Source: an uncultured Acidobacteriota bacterium (GTDB taxonomy: Bacteria; Acidobacteriota; Thermoanaerobaculia; UBA5066; Gp7-AA6). Taken from it: DNA of 64,000 bases. The position numbers and the translations under genes are program-made. Position 1 is the first letter of the stretch, and each line of letters begins with the position of its first letter. The DNA lies in contig CAWDSI010000034.1 in the NCBI GenBank assembly GCA_963804915.1, forward strand, positions 14,675 through 78,674, in the 5' to 3' direction. Below, in pieces: positions 24,623-64,000 of the stretch. Under the pieces are notes generated by a model. The model did no database searches. It had not been told where the DNA came from and worked only from the letters and a program-made list of their open reading frames with translations.

Positions 24623-27339
24623 TTGACCCTGACCGCGGGCTCGCGCCTCGGCCCTACGAGATCCTCTCGCCCATCGGCGCCGGTGGGATGGGGGAGGTCT
24701 ACAAGGCGCGGGACACGCGGCTCGACCGCGTCGTCGCGATCAAGGTGCTGCCCGAGAAGTCGATGCCGTCCGCCGAGGCGCGCCAGCGCTTCGAGCGCGA
24801 GGCGAAGACGATCTCGCAGCTCTCCCATCCGCACATCTGCACGCTCTACGACGTCGGACGAGAGGACGACGATCGAGTACCTGGTCATGGAATACATCGA
24901 GGGGGACACGCTCGGCGAGCGACTGGCGAACGGTCCTCTGCCGCTCGAGCAGACGCTGCGCTACGGCATCGAGATCGCGGACGCGCTCGATCGGGCGCAC
25001 CGGCAGGGCATCGTGCATCGCGACCTGAAGCCCGGCAACGTGATGCTGACGCACGGCGGGAGTCAAGCTTCTCGACTTCGGTCTGGCGCGGGATTTCGCG
25101 GCGCTCGTCCTCCGGACCGGCCGCGTTTACCGGTCTGCCGACGGCAGCGCCGAACCTGACGCAGGAAGGCATCGATCCTCGGCACCTTCCAGTACATGGC
25201 GCCCGAGCAGCTCGAGGGCAAGACGCGCGACGCGCGGACGGACATCTTCGCGTTCGGCGCGCGTGCTCTACGAGATGGCGACCGGCAAGAAGGCGTTTAC
25301 GGGACGCGTCCAGGCCTCGCTCATCTCGTCGATCATGAAAGAGGAGCCGTCGCCGATCTCGACGCTCTCGCCGATGAGCCCGCCGGCGCTCGACCGCGTC
25401 GTGCGGACCTGTCTCGCCAAGGATCCCGACGACCGCTGGCAGACCGCGCGCGACGTCGGGCTCCAGCTTCAGGGGATCCGGGACGACCGGTCGGCGTCGC
25501 AGCCCGCCGTTCTGCCCGCTCCGGGGCGCCGGCGGCGGACCGCGCTGCTGCCGTGGCTCCTCGCCGCCGCGAGCCTGGTGCTCGCCGTTTTCGGATGGAC
25601 GCATCGTCCACCGCCAGGTCCCGGCCTTCCCGTGCTGCGCACCTATCTTCCGCCGCCGCCCAACGCCAGCTTCCACGCCCTCGGCGCGAACGTCGGGGGC
25701 ATGGCACTCTCTCTCGACGGTCGCCGACTCGCGTTCGCCGCGCACGAGACGGACGGCATGCACCGGCTGTGGGTCCGGGACATGGACGCGCTCGAGCCGT
25801 ACGCCGTGCCGGGGGGAGAGGAGGCCATCTTTCCCTTCTGGTCGCCGGATGGCCGATCGATCGGTTTCTTCGCCCGGGGGAGGCTCAAAGTGGTCGAGGC
25901 GTCTCCCAATCCGCCTCCGGCGCGCGAGCTCGCGGACGTGCTCGAGGCGCGAGGAGGGAGCTGGGGAGCGGACGGGATCATCGTCTACTCGCCGCAGAAC
26001 TATCGTGGGCTCTGGCGCGTTCCCGCGGCCGGGGGCACGCCGGCGCCGGTGACCGAGCTCGACAAGACTCGCGGCGAGACGTCGCACCGGTGGCCCGTTT
26101 TCCTGCCGGGAGGCCGGCGCTTCCTCTACATGGCCCGATCGGCCGACCCCAAGGCGCTGATCGAGGTTCGCAACGCGATCATGGTGGGCTCGCTCGACGG
26201 GGAGAAGGCGCGCGAGGTGATCCCGGCGTCCATCGGGGCAACTCGGACGATCTATGCGCGTCCGGGGTATCTGCTGTTCCGGCGGGCGGGCAACCTGATG
26301 GCCCTCCCGTTCGATCTCCGGACGCTCACGAGCTCGGGGGAGCCCCTGCTCGTGGCGAAGGACATCCAGGGATTCTCCGCGACGGGCCTGGCGGTCTTCG
26401 ACGTATCCGACGACTTGCTCGTCTACTCGACGCGCGTCTCGGATCCCCCGACGCGTCTGTCCCTGGTCGATCGCTCGGGCAAGGAGCTTTCGACGCTCAT
26501 GTCCGAGGGATTGCTGATCCAGCTTGCCCTGGCGAGAGATGGCCGGACTGTCGCGGTCGCGAGAGTCGAGGAGCCTCTCCCTCCCGACCTCTGGCTCTCC
26601 GAGATCGGCGTCGGCCGGGAAATCCGCCTCATCCGCGACTCGATTCCGCAGGTTGCCCCCGTCTTTCAACCCGACGGGAAGCGTCTCTTCTACTCGTCGC
26701 TGTCGAACGGTCCCTGGGACATCTGGGAGATGCCGCTGCCCGGCGGGAAGGATCCCAAGCCGTTTCTGGAGTCGGAGACCACGAAGACGTGCTACGACAC
26801 CTCGCCCGACGGCCGCTGGCTCCTCGTACCGGGAGTTCAACCCGGGAACGCGCGGCGATCTGAAGTACGTGGCGCTCGAGGGGGATCGAACGCCCCACAC
26901 CTACATTGCCACGGCCGACGACGAGACCCACGGCGCGTTCTCTCCCGACGGGAATTGGGTGGCCTACGTGTCCGACGACTCGGGCCGCAAAGAGGTCTAC
27001 GTCGCCTCCTTCCCCGATCCCGTGCGGCGGTTTCGGGTCTCCTCGGGAGGCGCCATGCAGCCGCGCTGGAGCCGGGACGGCAAGGAGCTCTACTACATCC
27101 AGGCGAGCCAGATGATGGCGTCGGTCATCGGGCGGCATGGCGACGATCTGACGTTCGGGCAAGGTCAGCCACTCTTCACGATGGCCTTCTTTGCGCGGAT
27201 GAATCCCGGATTCGACCTCATCGCCCCATACGACGTCACGCCCGACGGAAAATTCGTCGTTTTCCTGAGGGCGTCGGAGGGCTCGAACCCTCCGCTGGTC
27301 GTGCTGCAGAACTGGAGAGCGGGCCTGAAGAAGCCGTGA
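24623..27339 (+). CDS. K1: Ser/Thr kinase - TM - TolB/PD40 beta-propeller; multiple frameshifts
   Basis: [24 protein letters not shown]; TM helix; repeated WSPDG/SPDG; ends QNWRAGLKKP. Confidence 0.88.
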
Positions 27340-27357
27340 GGTAGGCTTCTCTCAACT

Positions 27358-30034
27358 TTGACCCTTTCGACAGGTTCACGTCTCGGACCCTACGAGATCC
27401 TCGCGCCGATCGGCGCCGGCGGGATGGGAGAGGTCTACAAGGCGAAGGACACGCGGCTCGAGCGCACCGTCGCCATCAAGGTGCTGCCGCAGCATCTGTC
27501 CGCCTCGGCCGAGGTGCGCCAGCGGTTCGAGCGCGAGGCGAAGACGATCTCGCAGCTCTCGCATCCCCACATCTGCGCGCTCTACGACGTCGGCAACCAG
27601 GACGGGATCGAGTACCTGGTGATGGAGCTGCTCGAAGGCGAGACGCTGTCGGATCGGCTGGCGAAAGGCTCGCTCCCTCTGTCGCACACGCTGCGCTTCG
27701 GCGTCGAGATCGCCGATGCGCTCGACAAGGCGCACCGGCAGGGGATCGTGCACCGGGACCTGAAGCCGGGCAACGTCATGCTGACGAAGTCGGGCGTGAA
27801 GCTGCTCGACTTCGGCCTCGCCAAGGCGATGGCGCCGGCCGCTCCGCCCTCGGGCGCGACGTCGCTGCCGACCGTCATGGGCAAGGGCGGCGAGAACCTC
27901 ACGCAGGAGGGGACGATCCTCGGGACGTTCCAGTACATGTCGCCGGAGCAGCTCGAGGGCAAGGAGGCCGACGGGCGGACCGACATCTTCGCGTTCGGCT
28001 GCGTGCTCTACGAGATGGCGACCGGCCGGAAGGCGTTCACGGGCTCCTCGCAGGCTTCGCTGATCTCCTCGATCATGAAGGAGGAGCCGGCGCCGGTTTC
28101 GGTGGTGCTCGCCGACTTCGCCGCCGGCGCTCGACCGCGTCATCCGGAAGGCGCTCTCGAAGGATCCCGAAGATCGCTGGCAGAGCGCGGGCGATCTCGG
28201 CAGCGAGCTGAAATGGATCGGCGAGGGCGGCTCGGCGAGCGGCATCGCCGCGCCGGCGCTTCCGGCGCGGCGGAAGCGGCTCGCGTGGTTGCCGTGGGCC
28301 GCGGCGCTCCTGCTCGCGGCGGGCGCGTTCGCCGTGGGCCTCCGGGCTCGCCGCGCCCCCGAGGCCTCCGTCACGCGCTCTTCGATCGAGCTTCCGCCCG
28401 AGATGGATCTGGATCGCTGGACTTCGCCCGCGATCTCGCCCGACGGCTCGACGCTCGTCTTCGCCGCGACGGGATCCGACCGGAAGCGCCAGCTCTGGGT
28501 TCGCCGGATGGACGGTTTCGCCGTGCAGCCGCTCGCCGGAACGGACGACGCCATGGGCCCGTTCTGGTCTCCCGACGGCCGCTCGATCGGGTTCTTCGCG
28601 GACCGCAAGCTCAAGCGCATCCCGTCCGCGGGCGGCGCGGTTCAGACGATCTGCGACGCGTCGGACGGCCGCGGAGCGCTCGTGGAGCGTCGACGACGTC
28701 ATCGTCTTTGCGCCGGCGCTCCTTCGGAGGTCTGTTCGCAGGTCGCCGGCCACGGGCGGCGCCCCGGTGGCCGTCACGCGCGTGGAGGGCCAGGGCCGGA
28801 CGAATCGCCTTCCGTGGTTTCTGCCGGACGGCAAGCATCTGCTCTATCTGGCTGGCACGCAGACCTCGGACGTCGACAAGCACACATCGATCCAGGTGCT
28901 CGACCTCGCGACCGGCAAGTCCACGCTCGTGGCCCGGGAAAGCAGCGAGGGACGCTTCGTCGAGCCCGGGTACCTCGTCGTTCGTGCGCGAGGGCAACCT
29001 TCTCGCGCAGCCGTTCGACCGCAAGACGCTGAAGACGACGGGCCCGGCGGTTCCGATCGCGGAAGGCGTGGCCTTCGAGGCGTTTCGCTGGGTCGGAAAG
29101 TTCGCGATCTCGAACACGGGGAGGCTCGTGTACCAGAGCAACGAGGCCATTCGACGAAGAGCCGGCTGACGTGGTTCGACCTCGACGGCAAGCCGCTCGG
29201 CAGCGTGGGCGAAGCGGCGAACTTCTTTACGGTCGCTCTGTCGCCGGATTCGCAGCGCGTCGTGGCGACCGTGCTCGGCGACAAGAACCACGCGGCCCGA
29301 GATTCGCCTCTACGATCTCGAGCGCGGCGTCGGATCCCGGTTCACGTTCGGCGAACAGGGCGCGAACTTCCCGTCCTGGTCGCCGGACGGACAATCGATC
29401 GCATATGGCGATCCCGGGCTCCGGCGTTCGCGTCAAGGCCGCCGACGGGAGCTCGGAGTCGAAGCTGATCCTCGCCGAGAAGACCAACATCTGGCCGCTC
29501 TCCTGGTCGGCCGACGGAAAGCGGATGCTGCTCCGGATTCAGGACAACCAGAGGCGGAGGCGTCGAGCTCTGGGATCTGCCTCTGGAGGGCGAAACGAAG
29601 CGGCGTCAGCTCTTCCCGACGGATCCGGACGAGCTCGAGAACGGCTCGATCTCGCCGGACGGGAAGTGGCTCCTCTACGTCTCGAACGAAACCGGGCGCC
29701 GCGAGGTCTACGTCGTGCCCTACCCGTCGCTCGGCGAGAAGCGGCAGGTGTCGACGGCGGGCGCCGACTCCGGAATATGGCTCGGCGACAAGGCGATCGT
29801 CTACGAGCAGCCGCCCGACGGCCGGCTCTTCGCGGTCGACGTCGACACCGAGGGCGGGGGACTGCGCCTCGGCGCGCCTCGACCGATCTTCGGCGGCAAG
29901 CCGCCTCCGCGCGGTCCCGTTCGACGCGACGCGCGACGGAAAGCGGCTCCTCTTCGCGGTCCCGGACGAGAGACGCTGCGTCGGCGCAGATTCGGTTCGT
30001 CTCCGACTGGCGCGCCGACCTCGTGAAGAAGTGA
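27358..30034 (+). CDS. K2: Ser/Thr kinase - TM - TolB/PD40 beta-propeller; multiple frameshifts
   Basis: [31 protein letters not shown]; SPDG repeats; ends SDWRADLVKK. Confidence 0.9.
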
Positions 30035-30048: not shown

Positions 30049-30546
30049 CTAGCTCCAGTCGACCCGAATCGCCGGCGGCTTCGACAGCGTCTGCATGACG
30101 ACGCAGTACTGCTCGGTCTTCTCGGCCAGCGCGCGGAGCTGATCCGGCGTCGCGTCCGGCGCATCGACGTCGAACTTCAAACGGATCGACTCGAAGCCGA
30201 CCGGAACCTCCTTCGAGATGCCGAGCGTGCCGGAGAGATCGAGATCGCCGTCGACCGTCACCGCGATCGATTTCGTCGGGATGCCCATCGCCGTGGCCAC
30301 CATCTGGCACGTCACCTGCGCGCACGCGGCGAGCGCGCCGAGGAGCAGGTCGCCCGAGCACGCTCCGGTCCCCGCGCCGCCGACGCCCGCGTGCGCCTGC
30401 GCCTCGTAGACCGCGCGGCCGATGTCCACGGAGCAGGCGATCGGCGCGCCGGATTCGCCGCCCTTCGCGGTCAGAGTGATGCGGGAGGCCTTCGGGTCGG
30501 CCCGGTATTTGTCCTTGAGGGGTTTCTGAAGGGAACGCAGGTCCAT
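30049..30546 (-). CDS. OsmC family protein
   Basis: Two conserved Cys motifs: [17 protein letters not shown] and [11 protein letters not shown]. Confidence 0.85.
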
Positions 30547-30596: not shown

Positions 30597-33280
30597 GTGA
30601 CGCTCGCTGCCGGAACGAAGCTCGGTCCCTACGAGATCGTCGCTCCCCTTGGTGCCGGCGGGATGGGCGAGGTCTACGCGCGCGCGATGCGCGCCTCTCG
30701 CGCGAGGTCGCGATCAAGGTGCTTCCGGAGAGCCTGGTGCGCGACACGGAGCGGCTGACCCGCTTCCGCCGCGAGGCGCAGGTCCTCGCGTCGCTCAATC
30801 ATCCCGCACATCGCGGCGATCTACGGGCTCGAGGAGCAGGACGGCCGGGAGGCGCTGATTCTCGAGCTGGTCGAAGGCGAAACGCTCGCCGAGCGGATCG
30901 CTCGCGGAGCGCTTCCGATCGACGAGGCGCTCGAGATCGCGCGCCAGATCGCCCGCGCCCTCGAGGCCGCGCACGAGAAGGGGATCGTGCACCGGGATCT
31001 CAAGCCCGCGAACGTGAAGCTCGACCGGGCCGGACAGGTCAAGGTGCTCGACTTCGGGCTCGCGAAAGCGCTCGCCACCGACGGGTCCTCGCCGGACATC
31101 ACGTCTTCGCCGACGATGACCGCGGCCGCGACGCAGGCCGGCGTCGTGCTCGGCACGGCCGCCTACATGTCGCCGGAGCAGGCGCGCGGCAAGCCCGTCG
31201 ACGAGCGCGCCGACATCTGGGCCTTCGCGACGGTGCTCTACGAGATGCTCACGGGCCGCAAGGCCTTCGAGGGCGAGACGGTCTCCGACACGCTCGCGGC
31301 GATCCTCACGAAGGAGCCGGACTGGAGCGCGCTGCCGGCCGACACGCCGGCGTCGGTCCGCCGCGTGCTTCGCCGTTGCCTCGACCGGGACCCGAAGACG
31401 CGCATCCACGACATCGCCGACGCGCGCCTCGAGCTCGACGAGCCCTCGTTGCCGCCGGCCGGCCCGGTGCCGATCCCGTACCCGAGCTCTCGCATCCCGG
31501 CCTGGGGATGGATCGCCGGCCTCGTTCTTCTTCTCGCCGCCGGAATCGGATGGTGGCGGGCGCTGCAGCCCAAGGCCGCCGCCCCGCCGACCGAGATCAC
31601 CGGCTTCGCCGTCGCGGTCCCGGGCAATGACCAGATCCCGTTCGACGATTCCCCGGTCCTCGATCTTTCGCGTGACGGAAGACAGCTCGTTTTCATCGGC
31701 GAACGCGACGGACAGACGACAGCTCTACGTTCGCTCCCGCGACCGGATCGCCGCGAGACCCGTTGCGGGCACGGCGGGCGCCTACAGCCCGTTCTTCTCG
31801 CCCGACGGTCAGTGGCTGGGCTTCTTCGCCGAGGGAAAGCTGAAGAAGGTACCGGTGGCCGGCGGTTCGGCGATCGTGCTCGCGGACGCGCCGAGCAACC
31901 GGGGAGGGGTCTGGCTGGAGGACGACACGATCGTGTTCTCGCCGGAATTCACCTCGGGGCTGAGCCGCGTGTCGGCGCGCGGCGGAAAGGTCGAGACGCT
32001 GACGACTCCCGACGCGAAAGCGGGCGAGCGCTCGCACCGCTGGCCGACGTATCTCCCGGGCGATTCCGCGGTGCTCTTCACGGTCGGACTGCTCTCGGCG
32101 CCCGGCAACTACGACGACGCTCGCATGGCCGTCTGGGAGCCCGCGACACGGAAGACGCGCATCGTGTACGAGGGTGGCACGCATGCCGCGCGTCGCCGGT
32201 GAGAACCATCTCGTCTTCTGGCGAGGCAACGCGATGCTCGCGGCCGGATTCGATTCGAAGACCCGGCGCCTGGTCGGCGAACCGGTGCCGCTCGCCGAAA
32301 GAGCGGCCGGCGATCCTTCGAGCGGAGTGGCCTACGTCGCCTTCGCGAGCCGACGGCACCTTCGCCTTCGTTCCCGAGGGGGCGTCCATCGAGCGCCGGC
32401 TCGTTCTCACCGATCGCACCGGAAAGGCCAGGCCCGTCCCCGGCCCGCCGCGCGAGTACCACTATCCTCGCTTCTCTCCGGACGGAACCCGTCTCGCCGT
32501 CTCGATCGGTCCCGGACACGGGCACTCCGACGAGGTCTGGATCTGCGACATCGCGACCGGCGCTGTCCGGCGTCTGACCTTCGGCGATGGAAACGGCAAC
32601 TACTACGCGGTCTGGTCGCCGGACGGGAAACGCCTGGCCTACACCACGGACCGCGCGCATCAGGGAATCTTCTTCAAGAACGCCGACGGCTCCGGACAGG
32701 AGGAGCCGCTGCGGCCCGAGGCGCATGGGTGACACTCCCGCAGGACTGGTCGCGCGACGGCTCACTTCTTCTGGTCGACCGCAATCTTCCCGTCACGGAC
32801 GTCCTCACGTATTCGTTGAAGGACCGACGCGAAACTCTCCTTGCGAAGTCGGCGGGCGCTGCCGTCTTCTCGCCGGACGGCCGCTGGGTCTCCTACACGA
32901 CCTTCGCGACCGGAAGCAGCAGCAGCCGGCCGCAGATCGTCGTCCAGCCCGCGACCGGCTCCGAGGGGAAGGTCCAGCTCACTCCGGAATCCGGCTATTT
33001 CTCCGTCTGGACGGACCGCGAGCTGATCTATCTCGTGGATCGCAATGTCGTGGCGGTCGAGACGCAGACCTCGCCCACGTTTCGGGCGGGACCGGAGCGC
33101 GTCCTCTTCGAGATGCTCTACGACCGAGGGACGGAGCCGTTGCGCGAATACGACGTCACGCGCGACGGCCAGACCTTCGTGTTCGTCGGCGGCTCGGGCG
33201 AGCGGATTCGGAAAGAGGTCGACGTCGTCCTGAACTGGACGAACGAGCTGGCCCGCCAGTTGCCGGAGGGGAAGAAGTGA
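30597..33280 (+). CDS. K3: Ser/Thr kinase - TM - TolB/PD40 beta-propeller; multiple frameshifts
   Basis: GTG 30597 ([10 protein letters not shown]), [32 protein letters not shown]; SPDG repeats; ends [18 protein letters not shown]. Confidence 0.88.
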
Positions 33281-33747
33281 GCGCCCTGCTCATCGTCCAG
33301 CTCGTGTCCGTCTTCACGACGGGACTGCTCGCCGGAATCTTCTTCGGAGACCGGATGGGCAACAGCTATGCGCGGCCGAAGCTTCCGCCCTCGGCGTTCG
33401 TGACGTTCCAGCAGGTCCAGAACGTCCGCTTCGCGAGGATGATGCCGCTTCCGATCCTCGCCGCGCTCGTCTCCGACGCGCTGTGGATGGTGCTTCTCCG
33501 CGACCACATGGACACGACGGGCTTCCGGCTTCTGGCGGGCGGCACGCTCGCGCTGTTTCTGGCCGTGGTGCTCACACGTGTGGTGAACATCCCGATCAAC
33601 AACCGGCTCGCCAAGTGGAGTCCCGCGTCGCCGCCGTCCGATTTCACCTCGACCTGGGCGCGCTGGGAACGGGTCCACACCGTGCGCACGATCCTCGCCG
33701 TGCTGTCCTTCGCCCTGGTTCTCGCCGCGTTCGGGCTGGAGCTTTAG
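33277..33747 (+). CDS. DUF1772 / anthrone oxygenase-like membrane protein
   Basis: GTG overlaps the K3 stop (GTGA); hydrophobic helices; [24 protein letters not shown]. Confidence 0.7.
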
Positions 33748-35000
33748 GCCGTGACCGGCCGGGACGCTTCCTTGCGGGGATACTTCGTCGCGACGTAGTC
33801 GTCGACGAGGGCGCGGAAGGCCGTGGCGAGCTCCTCGTAGGTCCCTTCGAGCGTCGTGAAGTGCTGGCCGTCGATGTAGACGGGACAGTGCGGCTCTTCG
33901 CCGGTGCCGGGCAGCGAGATGCCGATGGAGGCCGCCTTGGATTCGCCGGGGCCGTTGACGACGCAGCCCATCACGGCGAGCGTCATGTTCTCGACGCCCT
34001 CGTGCTCCTGCTTCCAGACGGGCATCTGGTCGCGGATGTAGCCCTGGATGCGCTCGGCGAGCTCCTGGAACGTCGTCGACGTCGTGCGGCCGCAGCCCGG
34101 GCAGGCCGTGACCGACGGCGCGAAGGCACGGATGCCCAGCGACTGCAGAAGCTCGCACGCGGCGTAGACCTCTTCGCGCCGATCGCCTCCGGGCCTCGGC
34201 GTCAGCGAGATGCGGATCGTGTCGCCGATGCCCTCGTTCAGGAGCACGCCCATCGCCGAGGAGGACCACACGAGGCCCTTCATGCCCATGCCGGCCTCGG
34301 TCAGTCCCAGGTGGAGCGGCTGGTCGGTGCGCGTGGCGAGCTCGCGATAGACCGCGATCAGATCGAGCGGCCGCGAGACCTTGCACGAGATGATGATCTG
34401 GTCCTTGCGCAGCCCCGACTGCAGCGCGAGCTCGGTCGACTGGAGGGCGGAGAGGACCATGCACTCGTTGATGATTTCCTCGGAGGTGTGTCCGAGGTCC
34501 TTGTCGGTGTTCTCCTGCATCTTCTCCATGACGAGCTCCTGGTTCAGGGAGCCGCCATTGACGCCGATGCGGACGGGCTTGGCGTTCTCGACGGCGATCT
34601 TGCAGATCGTCGCGAACTGCTCGTCGCGCCGAACACCTTTGCCGACGTTGCCGGGATTGATCCGGTACTTGTCGAGGGCCCGGGCGCAGTCGGGGTACTT
34701 CGTCAGAAGAACGTGCCCGTTGTAGTGAAAGTCTCCGATCAGGGGCGCGTCGACCCCCGCGTCGAGCATCCGCTTCTTGATCTCGGGCACGGCGGCTGCG
34801 GCCTCAGGAATGTTGACCGTGATCCGGACCATCTCCGAGCCGGCCCGGGCGAGCTCGATGCACTGCGTGGCGGTGGATTTCACGTCCACCGTGTCGGTGT
34901 TCGACATCGACTGGACGACGACGGGGGCGCCGCCGCCGACCATCACCTTGCCGACGCGGACCCCCACGGTGGAGTGACGTTTGCGCTGACTCATGGACAT
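33744..35000 (-). CDS. ispG: 4-hydroxy-3-methylbut-2-en-1-yl diphosphate synthase
   Basis: [57 protein letters not shown]. Confidence 0.97.
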
Positions 35001-35121
35001 TTCAATTTACCAGATGACCGGAGGTCTTTGAATCCCGCACACGAGCAATGCCGACACGCGCCGTACGAGGTCGGCAGCCGAAGACGGCGTCGAGTCGCGG
35101 TAGAATCGGGCTAAACAGAGG

Positions 35122-37252: not shown

Positions 37253-37360
37253 GTGTTCGTGGAGCGCTCTTCGCCGAACTGATTCACCGGCAACTCCGGC
37301 GGCACGAGAGGGGCGGCACGGCGGTCGCCGGCCGCGGGGCGATTCTGTATGCTTGGCGCA

Positions 37361-40129: not shown

Positions 40130-40687
40130 TCAGTTTCCGGCGGCCGCGTTCTTCGCGCCGGGGGGCGGCGGATACTCGGCGAGGAGCTCGGAGACCGCCT
40201 TGTTGATGTCGCGTCGGAGCGCGTCGGGATTCGTGCCGAGCAGCGCCGACTTGAGCCCGCGCCAGATGAGCTTGCGCTCGGAGTCGCGGATGTTGATCCA
40301 GAGCGTGCCCCCCTGGCGGTACTTCGTGCTCGTGTCGTACAGGCCGCTCCACCAGACGTACCCGCTGACGCGTTCCTGGGACGAGGCGCCTTCCGCCCGC
40401 GTCGAGTAGGAGATGTAGATGTCGGGCGTGGCGCCGGCGGCCGCGGGCTGGACGCCTTTCTTCTTGAGGTTCTCGTCGATGGCCCTCCGAATGTTCTCGT
40501 CGATGAATTGCCCGTCGACGACCGCCCCGCCGCCGGGCATCTTGAAGTCCGGATCGTCGTACCACGCGTACGTCGTCGGGGGCGTGAAGCGAAAGTTCGG
40601 ATCGAAAGCATAGTCGTACGTCGGCTTTCCGGCGCAGCCGACCAGGAAGCTCGCGGCGAGCGACAGGGAAACGAGGACTTTTCGCAT
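40130..40687 (-). CDS. DUF4136 family lipoprotein
   Basis: ATG 40687 after AAGGAG; lipobox LVGC; TYAWY, FIDENIRRAIDENL, GTLWINIRD...LIWRG. Confidence 0.75.
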   Translation of the reverse strand: MRKVLVSLSLAASFLVGCAGKPTYDYAFDPNFRFTPPTTYAWYDDPDFKMPGGGAVVDGQFIDENIRRAIDENLKKKGVQPAAAGATPDIYISYSTRAEGASSQERVSGYVWWSGLYDTSTKYRQGGTLWINIRDSERKLIWRGLKSALLGTNPDALRRDINKAVSELLAEYPPPPGAKNAAAGN

Positions 40688-40695
40688 GGGGCTCC

Positions 40696-41366: not shown

Positions 41367-41375
41367 GGAAATGAA

Positions 41376-49458: not shown

Positions 49459-49491
49459 ACCGTCGTTGAAAGGAACTCAATGAGTCTCGAA
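49378..49491 (+). repeat. Direct repeat B: K7 3' end, spacer and K8 start
   Basis: Partner of 46702-46816. Confidence 0.85.
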
Positions 49492-52137: not shown

Positions 52138-54464
52138 TTGACCGCAACCGCGGAGCGCCGCTGGGGACTCGCGGCCGTGACAGCGGTGCTCGGATGCTTC
52201 GCCCTGCTGGCCGTGCGATCGTCCGCGGCTCCCGAACCGCGTGTGGGCTCGCTCCTGCTCGTCGCGGCCGCCCTGGAGTTGTTCCACGGCTTCCGGCGCT
52301 CGAGCGAGGCGGGCCAGCGCGAGGCCTGGACGGGCGGCCTGATCACGCTCCTGATGGGACTCCTGCTTCTGAATGCTCCGGACCTGGCGTCCGGGGCGCT
52401 GGTCGTCTTCTTCGGCGGCGGGTTCGCGCTCGACGGAATCCGGCACGCGAAACACGCGCTCGGCGCGCGAAAGGCTGGTCGCCCGTTCACCGCGCATGCG
52501 TGGGCGGCCGTCGGCAACTTCGCTCTCGCGGCGCTGCTCGCGGTGCTCGGCGGATGGGCGCCGGACTGGATGGTTCCGATCGCTGGCGCGCTCCGCATCT
52601 TCGGGACGGCCTGGGGCATCGCGATGGCTCCGGTCTTCGATGCGGCCGACGCAGGAGACACGGTGGTTCGCGACCTCGGCCTCGAAGATCGGCCCGAAAT
52701 CGCGGCGCTCGCGGAGCGGCTCGAGGACGAGGAGGCCCACCGCGCGCCGATCGACCGGCACTGGATCTTCGTGCTGATCCTCACGCTCTTCGCGATCCAC
52801 CTCGGGCGAATGGGATTCGACCGCACGGCCCTCGGCATCCTGGCGCCGGGTGTCGCCGTGCTCGGCGATCTGTTCGTCGGGCTCGTCGTGGGATTCCTCA
52901 TCGTGCTGCCGGGGCGCCTGGCCTTGCTTCGGCTGACCGGCCCGCTCGCTCGGCGCGCCGCGGACTGGCGCGCGGCGGCGAAGCCCTCCTGGCGGTCGCG
53001 TCTGGTGGATCGCTGGCTGACCCGTCGGCTTCGCGCCAACATTCGCATGCGCGACGCGCGCTACTCTTTTGCCGCCGCCGCCTCGCGCAGTCTGCGGGTC
53101 GGCCTGCCGGTGGCGGCGGTCTTCGCGGCCACGATCCCGGTCTGGGGCATGAGCTGGTATTTCGACACGGAGAACTGGGCGTCCGGCGTCTGGGACTCCT
53201 GGGCCGAGGAGCGTACCGATGTGTGGCGCGCGGCGATGACCTCCGCGACGGCCGAAGGCGAGCGCGCCGCGGGGCGGCCGGCGGACTTCGCCGTGGCGCC
53301 GGCCGGGACCGGGAAAGACTTCGCGTTCGTGGTCGTCGGCGACACCGGAGAGGGCGACGCGTCGCAGCATGTGCTCCGCCGCTCGCTGCTCCGCGCCACC
53401 GCGCAGCCCGAAGTGAAGTTCCTCATCGTCTCTTCCGACGTCGTCTATCCCTCGGGCGAGATGAAGGACTACGAGCGCAAGTTCTGGCTGCCCTTCATGG
53501 GAGTCGAGAAGCCGGTCTACGCGATTCCGGGCAACCACGACTGGTACGACGCGCTCGACGGCTTTGCCGTGACCTTCTTCACGCCCGAGGCCGCGCGGCG
53601 AGCGCTCCGGGCACGCGCCGAAGTCCGACCACCACCTGACGACGACCACCGACGCCGAGGCGGACGCGCTCGTCGCCGAGGCAGCGCGGCTGCGTGCGGC
53701 GTACGGCGTTCCGACCGGACTTCAGCAGGCGCCCTATTTCCAGATCCAGACTCCGGACTTCGCCCTGATCGCCGTCGACACCGGCATTCGCCGCGCGGTC
53801 GATGCGGCGCAGCTCGCCTGGCTGCAAATCGGCGCTCGACGCCTCGCGCGGCAAGTTCACGATGGCGCTTCTCGGTCATCCTTTCTACGCCGTCGGCGCG
53901 TACCAGGGCGCCAACAGGGAGGAATTCGACGCGCTGCACCGCCTGCTGCGTGAGCACGGGGTGCCTCTGGTCATGGCGGGCGACACGCACGATCTCGAGT
54001 ACTACCGGGAGCCGGGCGCTTCAGGTCGCGCGACCATGCACCACGTGGTGAACGGCGGAGGCGGCGCCTATCTGAGCCTGGGCACCGCCCTCGCGAAGCC
54101 TGAAAGCATGCCCACGCGGGAGTGGGCGTTCTATCCCTCGACCGCGCCCATCGTCGAAAAGGTCGTGACCAACAATCCGTCGTGGAAGCGCCCGGTCTGG
54201 TTGTGGGCCAGCCGCCTCGGCGGATGGCCGTGGTCGTCCGAGTGGCTCTCGGCCGCGTTCGACTACAACGTCGCACCCTTCTTCCAGAGCTTCGTCGAGG
54301 TCCGTGTCGAGCCCTCGGCCGGCCGCGTTCGGCTCCTGCCGTGGGGCGTTCACGGTCGCCTGCGCTGGTCCGACCTTCAGACCTCCGACGGGTTGCGTCC
54401 CGAGGGGGTCGCGCCGGACGCGCCGGTCGAGTGGACCCTGCCGCTCGGAGCGCCGGCGCGCTGA
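52138..54464 (+). CDS. Multi-TM membrane protein with a C-terminal calcineurin-like metallophosphoesterase domain; frameshifts near 53630 and 53830
   Basis: About 350 aa of hydrophobic helices, then [25 protein letters not shown] and AGDTH motifs. Confidence 0.78.
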
Positions 54465-55809: not shown

Positions 55810-55853
55810 GCAGGGGCCACGATGTATCCTTTGCGCGCCATTCGATTCCTTAA

Positions 55854-58436
55854 ATGAGCCTGACGCCCGGCACCCGGCTGGGTCCCTACGAGATCCTCGC
55901 GCCGATCGGCGCTGGAGGGATGGGGGAGGTCTACCGGGCGAAGGATCCGCGACTTGGGCGCGACGTCGCGATCAAGGTCCTGCCGGCGACCTTTTCGCAG
56001 GACGCGGAGCGGCTGCGCCGCTTCGAGCAGGAGGCTCGGGCCGCGGGCGTCCTGAACCACCCCAACATCACCGCCGTGTACGACATCGGCACTCACGAGG
56101 GCGCTCCGTACGTCGTCCAGGAGCTGCTCGAAGGCGACACACTGCGCTCGGTTCTCTCGGGCGGGCGTCTCCCGCAGCGCAAGACGATCGACTACGCCCT
56201 CCAGATCGTCCACGGTCTGGCGGCGGCGCACGAGAAGGGGATCGTGCACCGGGACCTGAAGCCCGAGAACGTCTTCGTGACGAACGACGGCCGGGTGAAG
56301 ATCCTCGACTTCGGCCTCGCCAAGCTGACCCACACGGAGGAGCGCGGCCAGGCGACCAACCTGCCGACCGCGACCGCGGGCACGGAGCCCGGCGTCGTCA
56401 TGGGAACGCTCGGTTACATGTCGCCCGAGCAGGTGCGCGGCAAACCGGCCGACGCGCGCTCCGACATCTTCTCCTTCGGGGCAATCCTGTACGAGATGCT
56501 GTCCGGCAGGCGCGCGTTCCACGGCGACTCGGCGGCGGACACGATGTCGGCGATCCTCAAGGAGGATCCGCCGGATCTCTCCATCACCAACCAGAACATC
56601 CCTCCCGGCCTCGAGCGGATCGTTCGGCACTGTCTCGAAAAGAGCCCCGAGCAGCGCTTCCATTCCGCGCACGATGTCGCTTTCGATCTGGAAGCCCTGT
56701 CGGGCCTCTCCATGCCCCGGATCGAGCCCTCGAAGTCGCGTATTCCCGTCCGACTTCCCTCGCGCCTGGTGGCGGCGGCCGTCCTCGCGGCCCTCGCGGT
56801 CGGGCTTTTCGCCGGCCGCTTGATCTGGAGCGCGGGTCCTGGGTTCTCTCCGAGCTTCCACAGACTGACATTTCGCCGCGGGCCGGTCCAGAGCGCGCGC
56901 TTTGCCCCCGACGGAAGCACGGTCATCTATACCGCCGCCTGGGACGGCGCTCCGAAGCCGGAGCTCTACTCGGTTCGCGTGGAGAGCCCCGAGTCCATGC
57001 GGCTCAGCCTCCCGAATCGATTGATCGAGGCGATCTCCCGTACGGGCGAGATGCTCGTGCTGGACCCGCTCCCCTCAGGGGTGGGGTACTCCATCACCGG
57101 CACTCTTTCGCAGGCGCCTCTGTCGGGCAGCGCGTCGCGAGAGTTGCTCGAGGATGTCGGAAGCGCCGATTGGTCCCCGGACGGAGCGAGTCTCGCCGTC
57201 GTACGCGCGCCCCAGTTCCGCTACCGACTCGAGTTTCCCGCCGGCAAGGTCCTCTACGAGACGACCGGCTGGATCAGCCACCCGCGCGTCTCTCCGAAGG
57301 GAGACGCCGTCGCGTTTCTGGACCACCCGGTCCTCGGCGACGACCGCGGCTCGGTCGCAATCGTAGACCTCGCAGGAAAGAAAAGGACGCTGTCCGAGGG
57401 ATGGGAAAGCGCACAGGGCCTGGCCTGGTCGGTCTCCGGCAAGGAGATCTGGTTCACGGCGACCCGCGCCGGCAACGCCCGCTCTGTCTACGCCGTGACG
57501 CCCGCGCGCCGCGAGCGCGCCGTGCTCGCGACGCCTGCAGGACTGGTGCTCCAGGACATTTCCCGCGACGGGCGCGTCCTCCTGGTCCAGGACAACGCGC
57601 GTGTCGGGTTCTACGCCGTGCTGTCCGGCGAAGCCAGGGAGCGGGACCTCTCGGGTCTCGAATGGTCGTGGGGCCCGCGCCTGTCCGCGGACGAGAAGTC
57701 GGTCGTCTTTACGGAAATGGGGGAGGCCGGCCTCGCGGGTTATTCCGTCTACATGCGCAAGCTCGACGGGTCGGCGGCAGTGCGGCTGGGAGAGGGAGCC
57801 GCGGTGGCGGCCTCGCCCGACGGGAAGTGGATCTTGACCCGCCGCATCCGAACGACACCGGCGACGTTCGTGCTGCTGCCGACCGGCGCCGGGCAGCCGA
57901 AGGCCTTCCCGAAAGACTCGATCGACCGGTCCGGCTTCGCGGCGTTCCTTCCCGACGGAAAGCGCATCGCGTTCAACGGCAACGAGGCGGGAAAGCCCAC
58001 ACGCGTTTTCGTCCAGAGTCTCGACGGAGGCTCGGCGCGGCCCGTCACCCCGGAGGGAGTCACCGCCAGGCTAATCTCGCCGGACGGCAAGTTCCTGCTG
58101 ACCGAGACGGCAGGGCAGGGGTTCGGCCTGGCACCCCTGGACGGCGGCGGCCCCCCGGTACCGATTCGCGGTCTCGAGCCGAGCGACGACCCGCTGCGAT
58201 GGACCGCCGACGGCCGTTCGCTTTTCATCCGCAGCTCGAAAGACTTTTTCCCCGCGCGAGTCTACCGACTGGATCTCGAGACGGGCCGCCGCGAGGTTTG
58301 GAAAGAGTTCATGCCCAGCGACCCAACCGGTATCACCGGCATGGGCCCCAATTCGATCTCCGCGGACGGCAACACCATCCTCTTCGGCTACAGCCACACC
58401 CTGAGCGATCTGTACGTCGCGGACGGCCTTCGGTGA
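55854..58436 (+). CDS. K9: Ser/Thr kinase - TM - TolB/PD40 beta-propeller, intact 860 aa
   Basis: [34 protein letters not shown]; FHRLTFRRG propeller entry; SPDG repeats. Confidence 0.95.
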
Positions 58437-58549
58437 GTCTCTCCTCGGGAACGAAGCTCGGTCTCGGACTCTCAGCGGCCCGCTGCGCGGGCCAACCGAC
58501 GAGAGAGGGGAAATCGGGTGTGCACCCTCTCCCAGGGCATTCGAGATGA
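58433..58549 (+). pseudogene. Kinase N-terminal stub ([10 protein letters not shown]) running into the leader motif; 38-codon uORF
   Basis: GTG overlaps the K9 stop. The first 10 codons match the kinase-start consensus (K12 [11 protein letters not shown]8 MSLEAGTKLG). The frame ends at TGA 58547-58549, overlapping the K10 ATG. Confidence 0.7.
58467..58533 (+). promoter_or_regulatory. Conserved structured kinase-leader motif, copy 3 (before K10)
   Basis: GACTCTCAGC GGCCCGC-TGC-GCGGGCC AAC CGACG A GAGAGGGG AAA TCGG GTGTGCA CCCTCTCCC, 12 nt before ATG 58546. Confidence 0.7.
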
Positions 58550-59153
58550 CGCTCTCCGCCGGATCGAGGCTCGGGCCGTACGAAATTCTGTCGCCGCTCG
58601 GGGCGGGCGGGATGGGGGAGGTCTACCGGGCGCGCGATGCGAAGCTCAACCGCGACGTTGCGATCAAGGTGCTGCCGGAGGCGGTGGCGGACGGGGAGCG
58701 GCTGGCGCGGTTCCAGCGTGAGGCGCAGGTGCTGGCGTCGCTGAATCATCCGCACATCGCGGCGATCTACGGGCTCGAGAAATCGGGCCACGTCGAGGCG
58801 CTGGTGCTGGAGCTCGTCGAGGGGGAGACGCTGGCCGAGCGGATCGGGGCCGGACCGATCCCGGTGGACGAGGCCCTCGCGATTGCGCGCCAGATCGCGG
58901 ACGCACTCGAGGCCGCGCACGAGAAAGGGATCGTGCACCGGGACCTGAAACCCGCCAACGTGAAGGTGACGCCGGAGGGCAAGGTCAAGGTGCTCGACTT
59001 CGGCCTCGCGAAGGCCCTGACGGGCGACCCCTCATCTGGGCGTTCGGCGCGGTCCTGTACGAGATGCTTGCCGGGCGCAAGGCCTTCGCTCGATCGCATT
59101 GCCGGAGGAGCAAGAAAGTGACCAACTGGACGGCGGGGCTCGAGAAGAAGTAA
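58546..59153 (+). pseudogene. K10: internally deleted kinase-propeller gene (N-terminus, subdomain IX fragment and extreme C-terminus only)
   Basis: Intact to [13 protein letters not shown], then jumps out of frame to [18 protein letters not shown] (from 59034), then to VTNWTAGLEKK with stop at 59151-59153. Confidence 0.8.
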
Positions 59154-59179: not shown

Positions 59180-61855
59180 GTGACTCTCGCCGCGGGAACG
59201 AAGCTCGGGCCCTACGAGATCCTCGCGCCGCTCGGAGCGGGCGGGATGGGCGAGGTCTACCGCGCGCGCGATACGCGGCTGGAGAGGACGGTGGCGGTCA
59301 AGGTGCTGCCCGAGCGCCTGGCCGAGGACGCCGACGCGCTGGCGCGCTTCGGGCGGGAAGCGAAGGCGGTCGCGGCGCTCTCGCATCCGAACATTCTCGC
59401 GATCCACGACTTCGGCCACGAGGGCACCGTCGCTTACTCCGTCTCGGAGTTGCTCGAGGGCGAAACGCTGCGCGAAGCCCTCTCGTCCGGGCCGCTGTCG
59501 TCCCGCCAGGTGCGGGATTACGGCGTGCAGATCGCGTTGGGCCTCGCCGCGGCCCACGAGAAGGGGATCGTCCACCGGGATCTGAAGCCCGACAACATCT
59601 TCATCACTCGGGACGAGCGCTTGAAGATCCTCGACTTCGGGCTGGCGAAGCCGAGCGCAGGCCCGTCCGATGCGCGCGATCAGACCCAATCCCCGACCGT
59701 CTCGGGCTACACGGAACCTGGAAAGGTCATGGGCACCGTCGGCTACATGTCGCCGGAGCAGGTGCGGGGCATCGCGGTCGATCAGCGGTCCGACATCTTT
59801 TCCTTCGGCGCCGTGCTCTACGAGATGCTTACGGGAAGCCGGGCGTTTGCGCGGGAGACGGCTGCCGAGACGATGACGGCGATCCTCAAGGAGGATCCCC
59901 GCGAGCCTTCGTCGGTCGGAGCGGACGCGGCGGCTCTCGTCCCGGTGCTGCGCCACTGCCTGGAGAAGAAGCCCGAGAAGCGTTTCCAGTCGGCGCGGGA
60001 CCTGGCCTTCGCCCTGGAGACGGCTGTAACGACAAGCTCCGCCGCCGTGGCTGTCGCGCCGGCCGCTCCTCGCTCCGTGCCGATCTGGCGGTGGCTCGGC
60101 GTCGCGGCGCTCGCGGTCGCCGCGGCGGCGGCCGGCTACTTCGCCCGTTCCGGCGGTTCGGCCGAGGCTCCGCCGCCGTCCGACTGGAACGACGCGACGA
60201 TCATGCCGCTCACGACGGATCCGGGTTACGAAGGCGAGCCGACGTTTTCTCCCGACGGACAGACGATTGCGTACGTGTCCGATCGCGACGGCAACTTCGA
60301 GATCTATCTGCAACAGATCGCGGGCGGACCCGCGATCAACTTGACGAACAATCCGGCGGCCGACATCCAGCCGTCGTTTTCTCCCGACGGCCGCGAGATC
60401 GCGTTCGTTTCGGATCGCTCGGGCGGCTCCGAGATCATTCACGCGGCTCCCGGCCTTCCGCGCGTCGGGGGCGACATCTGGGTGATGCCCGCTCTCGGGG
60501 GTCCGGCTCGACGAATCGTCGAGAAAGGGGACTGCCCGTCCTGGACGCCGGACGGCGCGAGCCTGGTTTACGTTCACGGCACCTACCGCAACGCCCGGAT
60601 CGGCATCGTTCCCGCGGCGGGGGGCGAGAGCCGCGACGTGCCGATCGAGGAGCCGTTCTTGCAGCGGTACTTCTTCCCCAGCATCTCGGACGACCGCCGC
60701 TGGGTGCTGTACCAGAACGGCGGCCAGGTTGAAGTCGTTCCCGCGGAAGGCGGGAAGGCGAAAATCCTCGCTCGCGGGGAGTGGCCTTCGTGGGGACCCG
60801 GCTCGACGAGCGTTCTGTACACGAATGACACGCCCGGCAAGGGCCGCACTCTCTGGAGGGCGCCGTTCTCGCTCGTCCGAGGAGAGTTATCGGGACTGCC
60901 GGAGCCGCTGACCTTCGGGCGCGGCGGCGACCTGGGCGCGAAGTCCTCGCGGGATGGAGCGTCGATCGCATTCTCCGCCGTGCAGGAGAGCCTCAACCTC
61001 GAAGAGCTTCCGTTCGATGCAGAGGCCGGGCGCGTGACGGGACCGCTCCGGGAATTGACCACCGGGAACAACCGCGTGGGTTTCTTCGGCGTCGCGCCCG
61101 ACGGAAAGGCGGTCGTCTTCGCCGCGGAACGCGGCGCCCGGTCGCATCTGTGGCGGATCGATCCGCCGGCACCGCCGGTCGAGCTCACACGCGATCCGAA
61201 CTACTCGGATACGTCCCCCGTGTGGTCGCCCGACGGCGGCGAGATCGCGTTTTCTCGAGGGGCCGTCGGGGCGGGCCAGGGCGCTCAGGCTCTCTGGATC
61301 ATGAGGTCCGATGGCACAAACCCCCGACGCGTCGCCGACTTCTCCGGACAGATGGTCTGGCTGCCGGATCGCAAGATGCTCATCCAGCGCGGCGACAGCC
61401 TCCTGCGGCTCGATCCCGCCTCGGGTGCCACCGAGCCATTGCCGGGAGCCAAGGCGCGGACGCTCCTGTCGGTCGATCGCACCGGGGAGTGGCTCGCGTA
61501 CCAGAGTAGTGAAGGCGGGGGGATGAACGTCATGGCCGTTCCGGCCGCCGGCGGAACCCCTCGCCTCGTCGAGACCGCGCAGTACGATGGCTATCACCCG
61601 CTCTTCTCGCCGTCCGGCCGCTGGCTCTATTTTCAGCCCGGCCACAAGAACCTTTACCGTGTGCCCGGCCCGGCGCAGGGCTGGGCGACCGCCGCTCCGG
61701 AGAAGGTGACAGAGTTCTCCGGGCTCGACCTCTACATCGAAGATCCCAAGTTCTCCCGCGACGGTTCTCGCCTCTTCTACACGCGCGGGCGGACGACGGG
61801 AGACATCTACATTCTCCACTTCGGGAAGGGCGCAGAGCCGAAGGCCAGCCGATGA
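59180..61855 (+). CDS. K11: Ser/Thr kinase - TM - TolB/PD40 beta-propeller, intact 891 aa
   Basis: GTG 59180; [31 protein letters not shown]; TolB-like [23 protein letters not shown]. Confidence 0.95.
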
Positions 61856-61895
61856 CACCTGGCCGACCGAGGCTCGGCGAATGAGGGAGGTTGAC

Positions 61896-62966
61896 ATGGC
61901 GCCGATCAGGGTGTGGCTGTCCGCCGCGGCCGGATTGCTCATCAGCGTTTGCGGCTTCGCCGCTGGCCCGGACCCGGGTGCGTTTACAGTCGGCACGGCT
62001 TCTGCCAATCCCGGCCAGAAAGTCACCGGCATTCTCGCGGTTCCCGCGGGCTCCGACGCGGGACTCGACATTCCCGTCGCCGTGGTCCGCGGAGCGCGGC
62101 CGGGGCCGGTCCTGGCTCTCGTCGCCGGCGCGCATGGCACCGAGTACGCCTCGATCGTCGCGATCGAGCGCCTGATCGAAAAGCTCGACCCGGCGCAGGT
62201 CTCCGGCACGCTCATCCTGGTCCCGCTCATCAACACGCCGTCCTTCGAGCAGAAGGTTCCGCACCTGAACCCCGTGGACGGCAAGAGCATGAACCGCTTC
62301 TATCCCGGCAAGGCGGACGGGACGCAGACGGAGCGCGCGCTCTTCCTCATCACGCGCCAAATCGTCGAGCGGTGCGACTACCTGATCGACTTTCACGGCG
62401 GCGATCTCGACGAGGACCTGCGGCCCTACAGCTACTGGCTGAAGACCGGCAACGAGAAGCAGGACGCCGCCTCGCGCCAGATGGTCCTGGCGTTCGGCCT
62501 CGGCACGATCATCATCTCCACCGACCGCCCGACGGATCCCGCCGCCTCACGCTATCTCGACGCGACGGCCTCCACTCGCGGCAAGCCGTCGATCACGGTC
62601 GAGGCGGGCCACGCCGGGACCGTGGAACCGGCGGACGTGTCGGCCCTCGTCGACGGGAGCCTGTCCGTCATGCGACTGCTCAAGATGCTTCCCGGCACTC
62701 CCGCGATGGTCGATCACCCGATCTGGATCGAGTCGATCAAGCCGGTCGCGAGCGAACAGACCGGGATCTTCTATCCGCTCGTCGCGGGGGGAACCTACGC
62801 CGCCCGGGGCATGCTTCTCGGATACGTGACGGACTACGTGGGTCGGAAGACCTTCGAAGCGCGCGCACCGGAGGCGGGCATCGTTCTCTACATCTGCGCC
62901 GTGCCCTCCATGAAGAAAGGCGACACGATCGCCAATATCGGCGTCGTCGCCTCGTCGCCGCCATGA
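61896..62966 (+). CDS. Exported M14-like succinylglutamate desuccinylase/aspartoacylase family hydrolase
   Basis: ATG 61896 after GGAGG; signal peptide; GAHGTE, MNRFYPG, DFHGGD, ITVEAG. Confidence 0.85.
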
Positions 62967-64000
62967 GTCTGGCGGCAGGAACAAAGCTCGGGCCATACGA
63001 GATTCTGTCGCCTCTGGGCGCGGGCGGGATGGGGGAGGTCTACAAGGCGCGGGACACGCGGCTGGAGCGGACGGTGGCTGTGAAGGTGCTGCCGTCGAGC
63101 ATGTCGGCTTCGCCGGAGGTGCGCCAGCGCTTCGAGCGCGAGGCGAAGACGATCTCGCAGCTCTCGCATCCGCACATCTGTGCGCTCTACGACGTGGGGC
63201 GCGAGGGCGAGACCGAATACCTGGTCATGGAGTATCTCGAGGGCGAGACGCTCTCGGATCGGTTGGCGAAGGGTCCGATGCCGCTGGAGCAGACGCTGCG
63301 GTATGGCGTGGAGATCGCCGACGCGCTGGACAAGGCGCACCGGCAGGGGATCGTGCACCGGGACCTGAAGCCCGGCAACGTGATGATCACGAAGTCGGGC
63401 GTGAAGCTCCTCGACTTCGGCCTCGCCAAGGCGATAGCGCCCGCGGCGGCGAAGTCGAGCCTGACGTCTCTGCCCACGCAGCAGAGCCTGACGCAGGAAG
63501 GGACGATCCTGGGCACGTTCCAGTACATGGCGCCGGAGCAGCTCGAGGGCAAGGACGCGGACGCGCGGACAGACATCTTCGCGTTCGGCGCGGTCCTGTA
63601 CGAGATGGCGACCGGGAGGAAGGCGTTCTCCGGGGCGAGCCAGGCGTCGCTGATCTCGTCGATCATGTCGGCGGATCCGCCGTCGATTGGGTCGACGCAG
63701 CCGATGTCGCCTCCGGCGCTCGACCGCGTCGTAAAAACGTGTCTCGCCAAGGACCCGGAAGATCGCTGGCAGTCCGCCGGAGACGTCGGCAAGCAGCTGA
63801 GGTGGGTTTCGGAAGGCTCCGCAGCCAGCGTCGCTCCGGTCGTCTCCGTCCGGCGCAAGCGGCGCGAAGCTCTCGCATGGGCCTTCGCTGCGGTCGCCGC
63901 GGCCGTCGCCGCGACAGCGCTGCTCTCTCGCCGTCCCGCTCCGGCGCGCGAGGAGCCGTTGCGCTTCACGATCATGCCGCCGCCCGGCCGGGGCTTTCTC
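62963..64000 (+). CDS. K12: Ser/Thr kinase - TM (propeller presumably beyond the window), partial
   Basis: ATGA overlap with the M14 stop; [48 protein letters not shown] after [10 protein letters not shown]. Confidence 0.92.

Follow-up and report, generated by a model that had tools for sequence, protein, structure and literature searches.

Results

Twelve co-oriented kinase loci

We analyzed a 64,000-nucleotide stretch of DNA from an uncultured Acidobacteriota bacterium (herein the window), which holds an array of genes encoding receptor-like Ser/Thr kinases with predicted β-propeller sensors. The window covers positions 14675 through 78674 of its source contig, C34 (C34:14675-78674); the assembly comprises 5.17 Mb in 39 contigs, with 68% GC and a marker-estimated completeness of 81%. 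A tblastn search with one kinase domain as the query places 12 kinase loci at 24.6 through 64 kb, all on the + strand, which we number G1 through G12 in window order; they start at 24652 (open reading frame [ORF] start 24623), 27358, 30597, 37441, 41388, 44122, 46805, 49480, 55854, 58546, 59180, and 62963. The summed spans of the kinase genes amount to 28.3 of the final 39.4 kb, which bears out an initial annotation of the DNA as twelve co-oriented loci covering ∼28 of the last 39 kb. Eleven genes are full length (2.58 to 2.72 kb). The ten that lie within the window measure 2583 to 2722 bp, the same ten loci and size range (2.58 to 2.72 kb) as annotated, and G10 is 576 bp long. Comparisons were made with five genomes of the same genus (G002, G006, G007, G012, and G018) and with L008, a metagenome-assembled genome (MAG) that is 89% identical to the window at the nucleotide level.

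Each full-length gene encodes a kinase, a transmembrane (TM) helix, and a predicted double propeller. The kinase domains form three groups: A (G1, G2, G5, G6, G7, G8, and G12), B (G3, G4, and G10), and C (G9 and G11). Only G9, G11, and G12 are single open frames; the other eight full-length genes carry 1 to 8 frame switches each. The array opens with G1 (24623..27344, ∼5 frame switches), whose orthologue in G002 has a 58% identical ectodomain, and G2 (27358..30034, ∼8 switches), which has an intact orthologue in G007 (88% identical in the kinase and 85% in the ectodomain). They are followed by G3 (30597..33280, ∼7 switches), G4 (37441..40129, ∼4), G5 (41373..44046, 3; orthologues in G018, G012, and G006), G6 (44122..46782, 3; orthologue G007_34911), G7 (46805..49455, 2), a mosaic whose kinase half resembles G8 and whose sensor half resembles G6, and G8 (49480..52132, 1), the copy chosen for ectodomain modeling. 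G9 (55854..58436) is an intact gene for an 860-residue protein, with orthologues throughout the phylum. G10 (58546..59121) is a 191-residue kinase remnant in which the N-lobe is preserved up to and including DFG, whereas the activation segment, the TM helix, and the sensor are missing. G11 (59180..61855, open from 59099) is intact and has the most PD40-rich sensor of the array; its orthologue G007_57008 is 94% identical in the kinase and 78% in the ectodomain. The array had been expected to run on past the window: G12 (62963..64000 and onward to the equivalent of 65623) does so, as an intact 887-residue ORF on the contig, but the 2.7 kb of contig beyond it contain no further kinase.

Nine unrelated genes are counted between the kinase genes (among them OsmC, anthrone-oxygenase-like, IspG, methyltransferase-like, DUF4136, metallophosphoesterase-like, P450, and AstE-like), three of them on the − strand (OsmC, IspG, and DUF4136). 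Where receptor genes follow one another head to tail, the intergenic gaps are 14 to 76 nt; given such short gaps, these genes are possibly co-transcribed. A stub resembling a kinase start (..SLLGTKLG..) stands directly after G9, followed by a short leader motif (described below) and the truncated G10 (58433-59121).

Predicted architecture of the full-length proteins

Stitched across their frame switches, the full-length proteins are 860 to 920 residues long. All 11 keep the Gly-rich loop, [IV]K, HRDLKPxN, DFG, and GTxxYM[AS]PEQ; G4 has LAIK instead of VAIK. The Pfam kinase family (PF00069, cut-off 31.7 bits) matches G9 with 175.9 bits and G11 with 167.7 bits, and PD40 (PF07676, cut-off 20.9 bits) matches G11, G8, and G9 with 138.9, 112.6, and 34.9 bits, respectively. 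A single hydrophobic segment, at residues ∼298 through 335, is found in each full-length copy; the kinase is N-terminal, and a signal peptide is absent. Since there is no signal peptide and the kinase needs ATP, the kinase is predicted to be cytoplasmic and the ectodomain extracytoplasmic (periplasmic).

An AlphaFold model of G9, built from a 25-sequence alignment, places the TM helix at residues 304 through 325, which together with the lone hydrophobic segments agrees with the bitopic, receptor-like topology of the initial annotation. The ectodomain is modeled as all-β with a predicted local distance difference test (pLDDT) score of ∼85 to 95; the kinase part is poor (pLDDT ∼30 to 57). Kinase matches dominate a Foldseek search with the whole G9 model. 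When the G8 ectodomain is modeled by itself, the mean pLDDT is 89.5 and ∼48 β-strands are seen, which corresponds to ∼12 four-stranded blades; the best PDB matches of this model are tandem two-propeller proteins (2ymu, Aip1, and LRP6), tricorn protease, S9 peptidases, and TolB. The ∼550-residue ectodomain is thus predicted to consist of two tandem PD40/TolB-type β-propellers with ∼12 blades. The composition given earlier for ten of the loci (a kinase, one TM helix, and ∼550 residues of propeller) fits all eleven full-length copies; G10 is a remnant.

An ectodomain sequence profile matches TolB chains over the C-terminal half (E 1.7e-29), and the kinase domain is 35 to 39% identical to PknA and PknB in structure and sequence searches. 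At least 8000 homologous proteins are found at E ≤1e-20; their public names are “protein kinase,” “serine/threonine protein kinase,” and “Tol biopolymer transport system component.” Precomputed domain lists for homologues P0004 through P0123 carry PF26549 and PF26550, two entries that may represent more recent propeller families covering the first (N-terminal) of the two propellers.

The array is a genuine, genus-conserved locus

The upstream flanks followed by G1-G2-OsmC-G3-IspG, or parts of this series, are common to the five genus genomes, and in G007, G018, and G002 the match extends from the flanks through IspG. Orthologues of G4, G5, the G6/7/8 type, G11, and G12 come after the IspG region in genomes of the genus. 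L008 is colinear with 45886-58463, which covers the end of G6 and G7-G8-phosphoesterase-P450-G9. The locus is syntenic in the five genus genomes and L008, with copy number and order varying among them. In 13 further MAGs, some of them short-read assemblies made with SPAdes or MEGAHIT, 5 to 9 co-oriented kinases are arrayed per ∼23 kb. All related loci are from MAGs of Acidobacteriota, most of which carry the label Thermoanaerobaculia, and many belong to few-contig “MFD” assemblies.

Because independent assemblies share its gene order, the array is genuine and conserved in the genus. That dispersed paralogues were joined artificially is exceedingly improbable. Such an origin could be read into the contigs that begin or end within kinase arrays (C8 and C3) and into the indel errors present in the assembly; it would have to produce the same order in the assemblies of G007, G018, G002, and L008, arrays in short-read assemblies as well, and joins between copies that are at most 82% identical at the nucleotide level. 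Contigs start inside or beside kinase arrays at C8:3, C3:2, and C15:1763, and the assembly seems prone to break at such arrays.

Sensors are old, conserved lineages, more divergent than the kinases

Within the array, kinase domains share a mean identity of 59% (45 to 87%) and ectodomains one of 30% (18 to 73%), as anticipated from the reported contrast between conserved kinases and divergent propellers. A maximum-likelihood tree was calculated for 57 ectodomains from the window and the five same-genus genomes, with 10 window genes included. All 10 have as their nearest partner a gene of a different genome, never a neighbor, and the label “window” requires 10 changes on the tree; G6, G7, and G8 each join their own G007 orthologue, with starred support for the G6 and G8 pairings. 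As the sensors pair first across genomes, the duplications are older than the divergence within the genus. The G9 type dates back further still, with sequences 49 to 58% identical over their full length in Terriglobales, Solibacteraceae, and Pyrinomonadaceae.

Ratios of nonsynonymous to synonymous substitution rates (dN/dS) against G007 orthologues are 0.07 to 0.16 for the kinases and 0.15 to 0.33 for the sensors, so that the sensor value is 1.3 to 3 times that of the kinase. The highest dN/dS in any 40-codon window is 0.76, and none reaches 1. The sensors are old, individually conserved lineages under purifying selection that evolve faster than the kinases.

These data bear on the proposal that the propellers diversify rapidly, under diversifying selection and through recent local duplication. 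It would account for ectodomains far more divergent than the kinases and for their higher dN/dS between orthologues, but each tested sensor has a 1:1 orthologue in another member of the genus, dN/dS stays below 1 in all windows, the G9 type is shared full length across classes of the phylum, and the top nucleotide identity between window copies is 82%; we regard it as improbable. The idea of an array “diversifying in place” finds no support in the cross-genome pairing or the dN/dS scan. The broader picture of a constant signalling domain joined to variable sensors survives in part: these are receptor-like bitopic kinases and their kinase domains are the more alike, but the sensors are conserved rather than hypervariable. 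Their one-to-one conservation between species suggests that each probably recognizes a distinct, stable ligand.

Kinase and sensor halves have recombined

Sliding nucleotide identity shows that the first ∼900 nt of G7 are nearer to G8 (79 to 93%) than to G6 (69 to 79%), while from ∼nt 1050 onward G7 is mostly nearer to G6 (70 to 83%) than to G8 (55 to 76%). In agreement, the kinase tree joins the G7 and G8 groups (support 100/100) and the ectodomain tree joins G7 with G6 (100/99). Further conflicts between the two trees, with starred support, involve G012_53523, G018_44001, G007_43755, and G007_46415, and near-identical kinases carry different sensors in both G007 and G006. As the kinase and sensor trees conflict, the two halves have recombined. 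G9 and G007:43767 were considered as an orthologue pair and rejected, with a kinase identity of 80%, an ectodomain identity of only 27%, and a re-pairing of kinase and sensor in the trees.

Recent homogenization was not seen within the window; the closest kinase pair, G7 and G8, is 87% identical, and the similarity is also present in the orthologues. Copy number differs at several points: the distance from IspG to P450 ranges from 4.7 to 19 kb between genomes, G6/7/8-type genes number three to five per genome, and the G10-G11-AstE segment, which separates G9 from G12 in the window, is missing at that site in L008. The array thus changes through gene gain, loss, and rearrangement and through recombination or gene conversion close to the boundary of kinase and sensor, by which the two are re-paired.

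Two stretches at gene junctions, 46690-46830 and 49365-49505, are nearly identical; they contain the 3′-terminal ∼90 nt of G6 and G7, the short spacers, and the opening codons of G7 and G8. This near-identity of the G6/G7 and G7/G8 junctions fits an unequal crossover or a conversion tract across a gene junction.

Frameshifts are most likely assembly indels

Frame changes were traced by a Viterbi path based on GC content at third codon positions (GC3) and by chaining tblastn high-scoring segment pairs (HSPs) of intact relatives, giving ∼33 frameshifts in eight kinase genes. The HSP chains show colinear homology across each frame switch, and the stitched frames are free of stop codons, with GC3 periodicity preserved. 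Across the assembly, ∼40 of 114 kinase loci change frame inside the 850-bp kinase domain. A survey of non-kinase loci against the proteins of relatives found 18 frame changes in 13 of 56 loci (73.7 kb); rpoB is intact over 4.35 kb, which alone is not decisive on assembly quality. Orthologues of the most-shifted genes are intact in G007, and the L008 orthologue of G9 has extra single bases where G9 of the window is intact. On terminal branches, the ratios of nonsynonymous to synonymous codon changes (N/S) are 25/53 for G2 and 40/64 for G3, compared with 21/64 and 47/72 for their intact G007 orthologues and with ∼2.5 to 3 expected for neutral decay.

We conclude that the frameshifts are most likely mostly assembly indels. 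An alternative is a birth-and-death array, like eukaryotic receptor clusters, in which the shifted copies, especially G1 through G4 (4 to 8 shifts each), are truly inactivated. The shifts are concentrated in kinase genes, with OsmC, IspG, DUF4136, and P450 intact; G018, G002, and L008, likewise MAGs of few contigs, show the same skew toward kinase genes; G10 is a true remnant; and copy number differs between species. Decay of this kind is nonetheless unlikely, given the stop-free stitched frames with their GC3 periodicity, N/S values in G2 and G3 that resemble those of intact orthologues and fall far under the neutral expectation, the frameshifts in non-kinase loci, and the marker completeness of the genome (81%).

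Two sources of indels were considered and set aside. Among 14 junctions inspected, only ordinary sequence or runs of 3 to 4 bases were found, so a homopolymer origin has no diagnostic trace, and cross-mapping of reads between paralogues is at odds with copies that are ≤82% nucleotide-identical.

One architecture dominates the kinome

Acidobacteriota rank with the most abundant bacteria in soil, and their genomes are reportedly rich in Ser/Thr kinases. The present genome contains 110 kinase N termini, at least 67 of which are followed by a sensor of the double-propeller type; one architecture thereby dominates the kinome and occupies an estimated ∼3% of the genome. Forty-two kinase genes lie in clusters of at least three, of which there are seven; the window array is the largest, and others comprise 10 genes on C13 and 6 on C8. 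Sixteen FHA-domain loci and at least one PP2C gene are also present in the genome, all of them outside the window.

Thirty relatives were sampled, and all have at least ∼58 Pkinase matches or nearly that many; a first look gave 28 to 127 kinase candidates per relative genome of 3 to 6 Mb. Expanded and arrayed kinase genes of this kind recur throughout related Thermoanaerobaculia-type Acidobacteriota; among Terriglobales-type relatives, the orthologue of G9 usually stands alone.

The array is an ordinary, lineage-typical example of a very large, generically annotated family, and to a specialist it is only modestly surprising; its interest, itself modest, lies in the modular recombination of kinase and sensor and in the sheer size of the repertoire. 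A search of the full-text literature found no paper on kinase-PD40 arrays in Acidobacteriota. In Candidatus Solibacter usitatus Ellin6076, Ser/Thr kinases are listed as one of the notable families of paralogues, which share <50% identity and show no positive selection (PMC3174227). That expansion resembles the present one in its low identity and in showing no positive selection; the same paper (PMC3174227) makes no mention of propellers, tandem kinase arrays, or recombination between kinase and sensor.

Relation to known systems

No NCBIfam equivalog, including PknB-PASTA, PknD, TolB, and MAD6, matches the array proteins at its own cut-off. PknD of Mycobacterium tuberculosis is said to be a receptor Ser/Thr kinase with an extracellular NHL β-propeller as its sensor. 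The array proteins are like it in having a cytoplasmic Hanks-type kinase, one TM helix, an extracytoplasmic propeller, and a presumed activation by ligand via the sensor. PknD has a single six-bladed NHL propeller, whereas the array proteins have two tandem propellers of PD40/TolB type in ∼550 residues; PknD is a single gene, whereas the array genes are among ∼70 similar ones. The PknD model (PRK13184) scores 148 to 157 bits against a cut-off of 839, and Pfam finds PD40 and no NHL.

With PknB, PknA, and Stk1 the kinase domains share 33 to 39% identity and the same catalytic motifs, but the PASTA domains of the PknB/Stk1 kinases are absent, and the PknB_PASTA_kin model (NF033483) reaches 290 to 316 bits against a cut-off of 450, over the kinase domain only. 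The six-bladed PD40 propeller of TolB resembles the C-terminal half of the ectodomain, with a Foldseek template modeling score (target-normalized) of up to 0.49. The match leaves out the N-terminal domain of TolB, and the array proteins add a second propeller, the TM helix, and the kinase; TIGR02800 scores 60 to 145 bits against a cut-off of 343, with only model positions ∼196 through 384 matched.

Clusters of plant receptor-like kinases, to which the array had been loosely compared, share the kinase-TM-ectodomain layout, tandem clustering, change in copy number, and recombination at the level of domains. The order is reversed in the array proteins (kinase N-terminal and sensor C-terminal), and their sensors have an unrelated fold, are old and conserved, and gave no sign of positive selection. 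The comparison therefore holds as an analogy of layout and not beyond it.

Kinase-domain models of two anti-phage systems also match the array. The PD-T4-6 and mad6 models of PADLOC do so with E values down to 1.5e-91, and MAD6 of NCBIfam with 1e-47, which would be expected of defense kinases related to PD-T4-6 or to Mad6 of the MADS system. These matches extend over no more than the generic kinase domain (residues ∼9 through 282 or 320), and NCBIfam MAD6 scores 151 to 163 bits where its cut-off is 460; a TM helix with a periplasmic double propeller is foreign to those systems. A genome has ∼110 copies of the kinases, whose orthologues are conserved throughout the phylum, and the window holds no MADS or BREX partner set; one ORF that weakly matches the mad2 methyltransferase (E 2.9e-11) is read as a generic methyltransferase-domain match. 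A defensive role is thus very improbable. The PADLOC PD-T4-6 models match ordinary receptor kinase domains, and such matches in kinase-rich genomes should not be read as defense.

Proposed function

Taken together, we consider it probable that the locus is a genuine genus-conserved cluster of eleven bitopic receptor Ser/Thr kinases and one remnant, signalling in a manner proposed by analogy, with old sensors and with frameshifts that are indel artefacts. From the N to the C terminus, each full-length protein would comprise a cytoplasmic Hanks-type kinase of the RD class, a short linker next to the membrane (juxtamembrane), a single TM helix, and a periplasmic double propeller. A periplasmic or envelope-derived ligand may bind the propellers; by analogy with the propellers of TolB, S9 peptidases, and tricorn, the most likely candidates are peptides, segments of proteins, and components of the envelope. 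Binding would alter the oligomeric state, the kinase would then autophosphorylate the Thr of its activation loop (GTxxYM[AS]PEQ), and cytoplasmic targets would in turn be phosphorylated. No neighbor in the window points to a ligand or pathway; by Pfam, the neighbors have mixed metabolic functions. The intact G9, G11, and G12 lend themselves well to expression and to screening for ligands.

Several observations weigh against this interpretation. The signalling mechanism is one that we infer solely by analogy with PknB, PknD, and TolB. The TM helix has basic residues at either end, so that the topology is predicted from the missing signal peptide and the ATP requirement of the kinase, and the number of blades and the split into two propellers are taken from strand counts and Foldseek matches (template modeling score ∼0.3 to 0.5). 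Frame switches occur at ∼1.2 per kb in kinase genes and at 0.24 per kb elsewhere, an ∼5-fold difference, and the interspersed single-copy genes have none, so a uniform error model is insufficient.

A further suggestion, which we offer tentatively and hold to be doubtful, is that the arrays act as banks of modular receptor cassettes, in which many old and individually conserved double-propeller sensors are joined to shared kinase heads of ∼850 nt that double as handles for recombination. Through unequal crossover and gene conversion between these heads, sensors could be gained, lost, and re-paired while the downstream wiring stays constant. If this were so, it would represent a prokaryotic route to a large receptor-kinase repertoire, ∼70 per genome of 4 to 5 Mb, with one dominant sensor fold.

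Interspersed genes and other features

The OsmC-like gene (30049..30546, −; PF02566, E 4.8e-22) has the same position in G007 and G018. Downstream of G3, a small membrane protein of the anthrone-oxygenase-like (DUF1772) type is encoded at 33280..33747 (+; start approximate); its Pfam match (PF08592, E 1.2e-13) covers the C-terminal part of the ORF 32587-33747. The intact housekeeping gene ispG (GcpE; 33744..35006, −; PF04551, E 2.8e-106) is 90 to 94% identical within the genus, and a methyltransferase-like ORF follows at 35447..37282 (+), with a weak Pfam match (Methyltransf_25, E 2.9e-4) and changes in GC3 phase; it is possibly frameshifted. Between G4 and G5 lies a gene for a DUF4136 protein (40130..41254, −; PF13590, E 7.2e-36).

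Downstream of G8, a metallophosphoesterase-like gene (52138..54464, +; Pfam Metallophos, E 4.7e-5) is probably frameshifted near 53.8-54.05 kb; two overlapping ORFs with differing GC3 phases are found in this region. The intact cytochrome P450 gene (54304..55809, +; PF00067, E 4.3e-89) is 71 to 78% identical in G007, G002, and G006. A gene of the AstE/AspA desuccinylase-like type (61881..62966, +; PF24827, E 2.1e-27) separates G11 from G12.

A leader motif of ∼70 nt with two hairpins (CAGACTCTTAGCGGCCCGC..GCGGGCCAACCGACGAGAGAGGGGA..CCCTCTCCC) precedes G4, G5, and G10. Its sites are 37359-37430, ∼41300-41345, and ∼58467-58511 in the window, C34:82983-83026, and 12 more places in the genome; one copy lies 36 nt from the contig end. 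The motif is not kinase-specific, as only 3 of the 16 genomic copies precede kinases, and no Rfam family reaches its gathering score anywhere in the window, the leader motif included.

Just upstream of the array, a gene of the class A β-lactamase family is found at 22064-22963 (−; Pfam Beta-lactamase2, E 4.7e-57); it occupies the same position in G007 and G002, with 84 to 88% identity.

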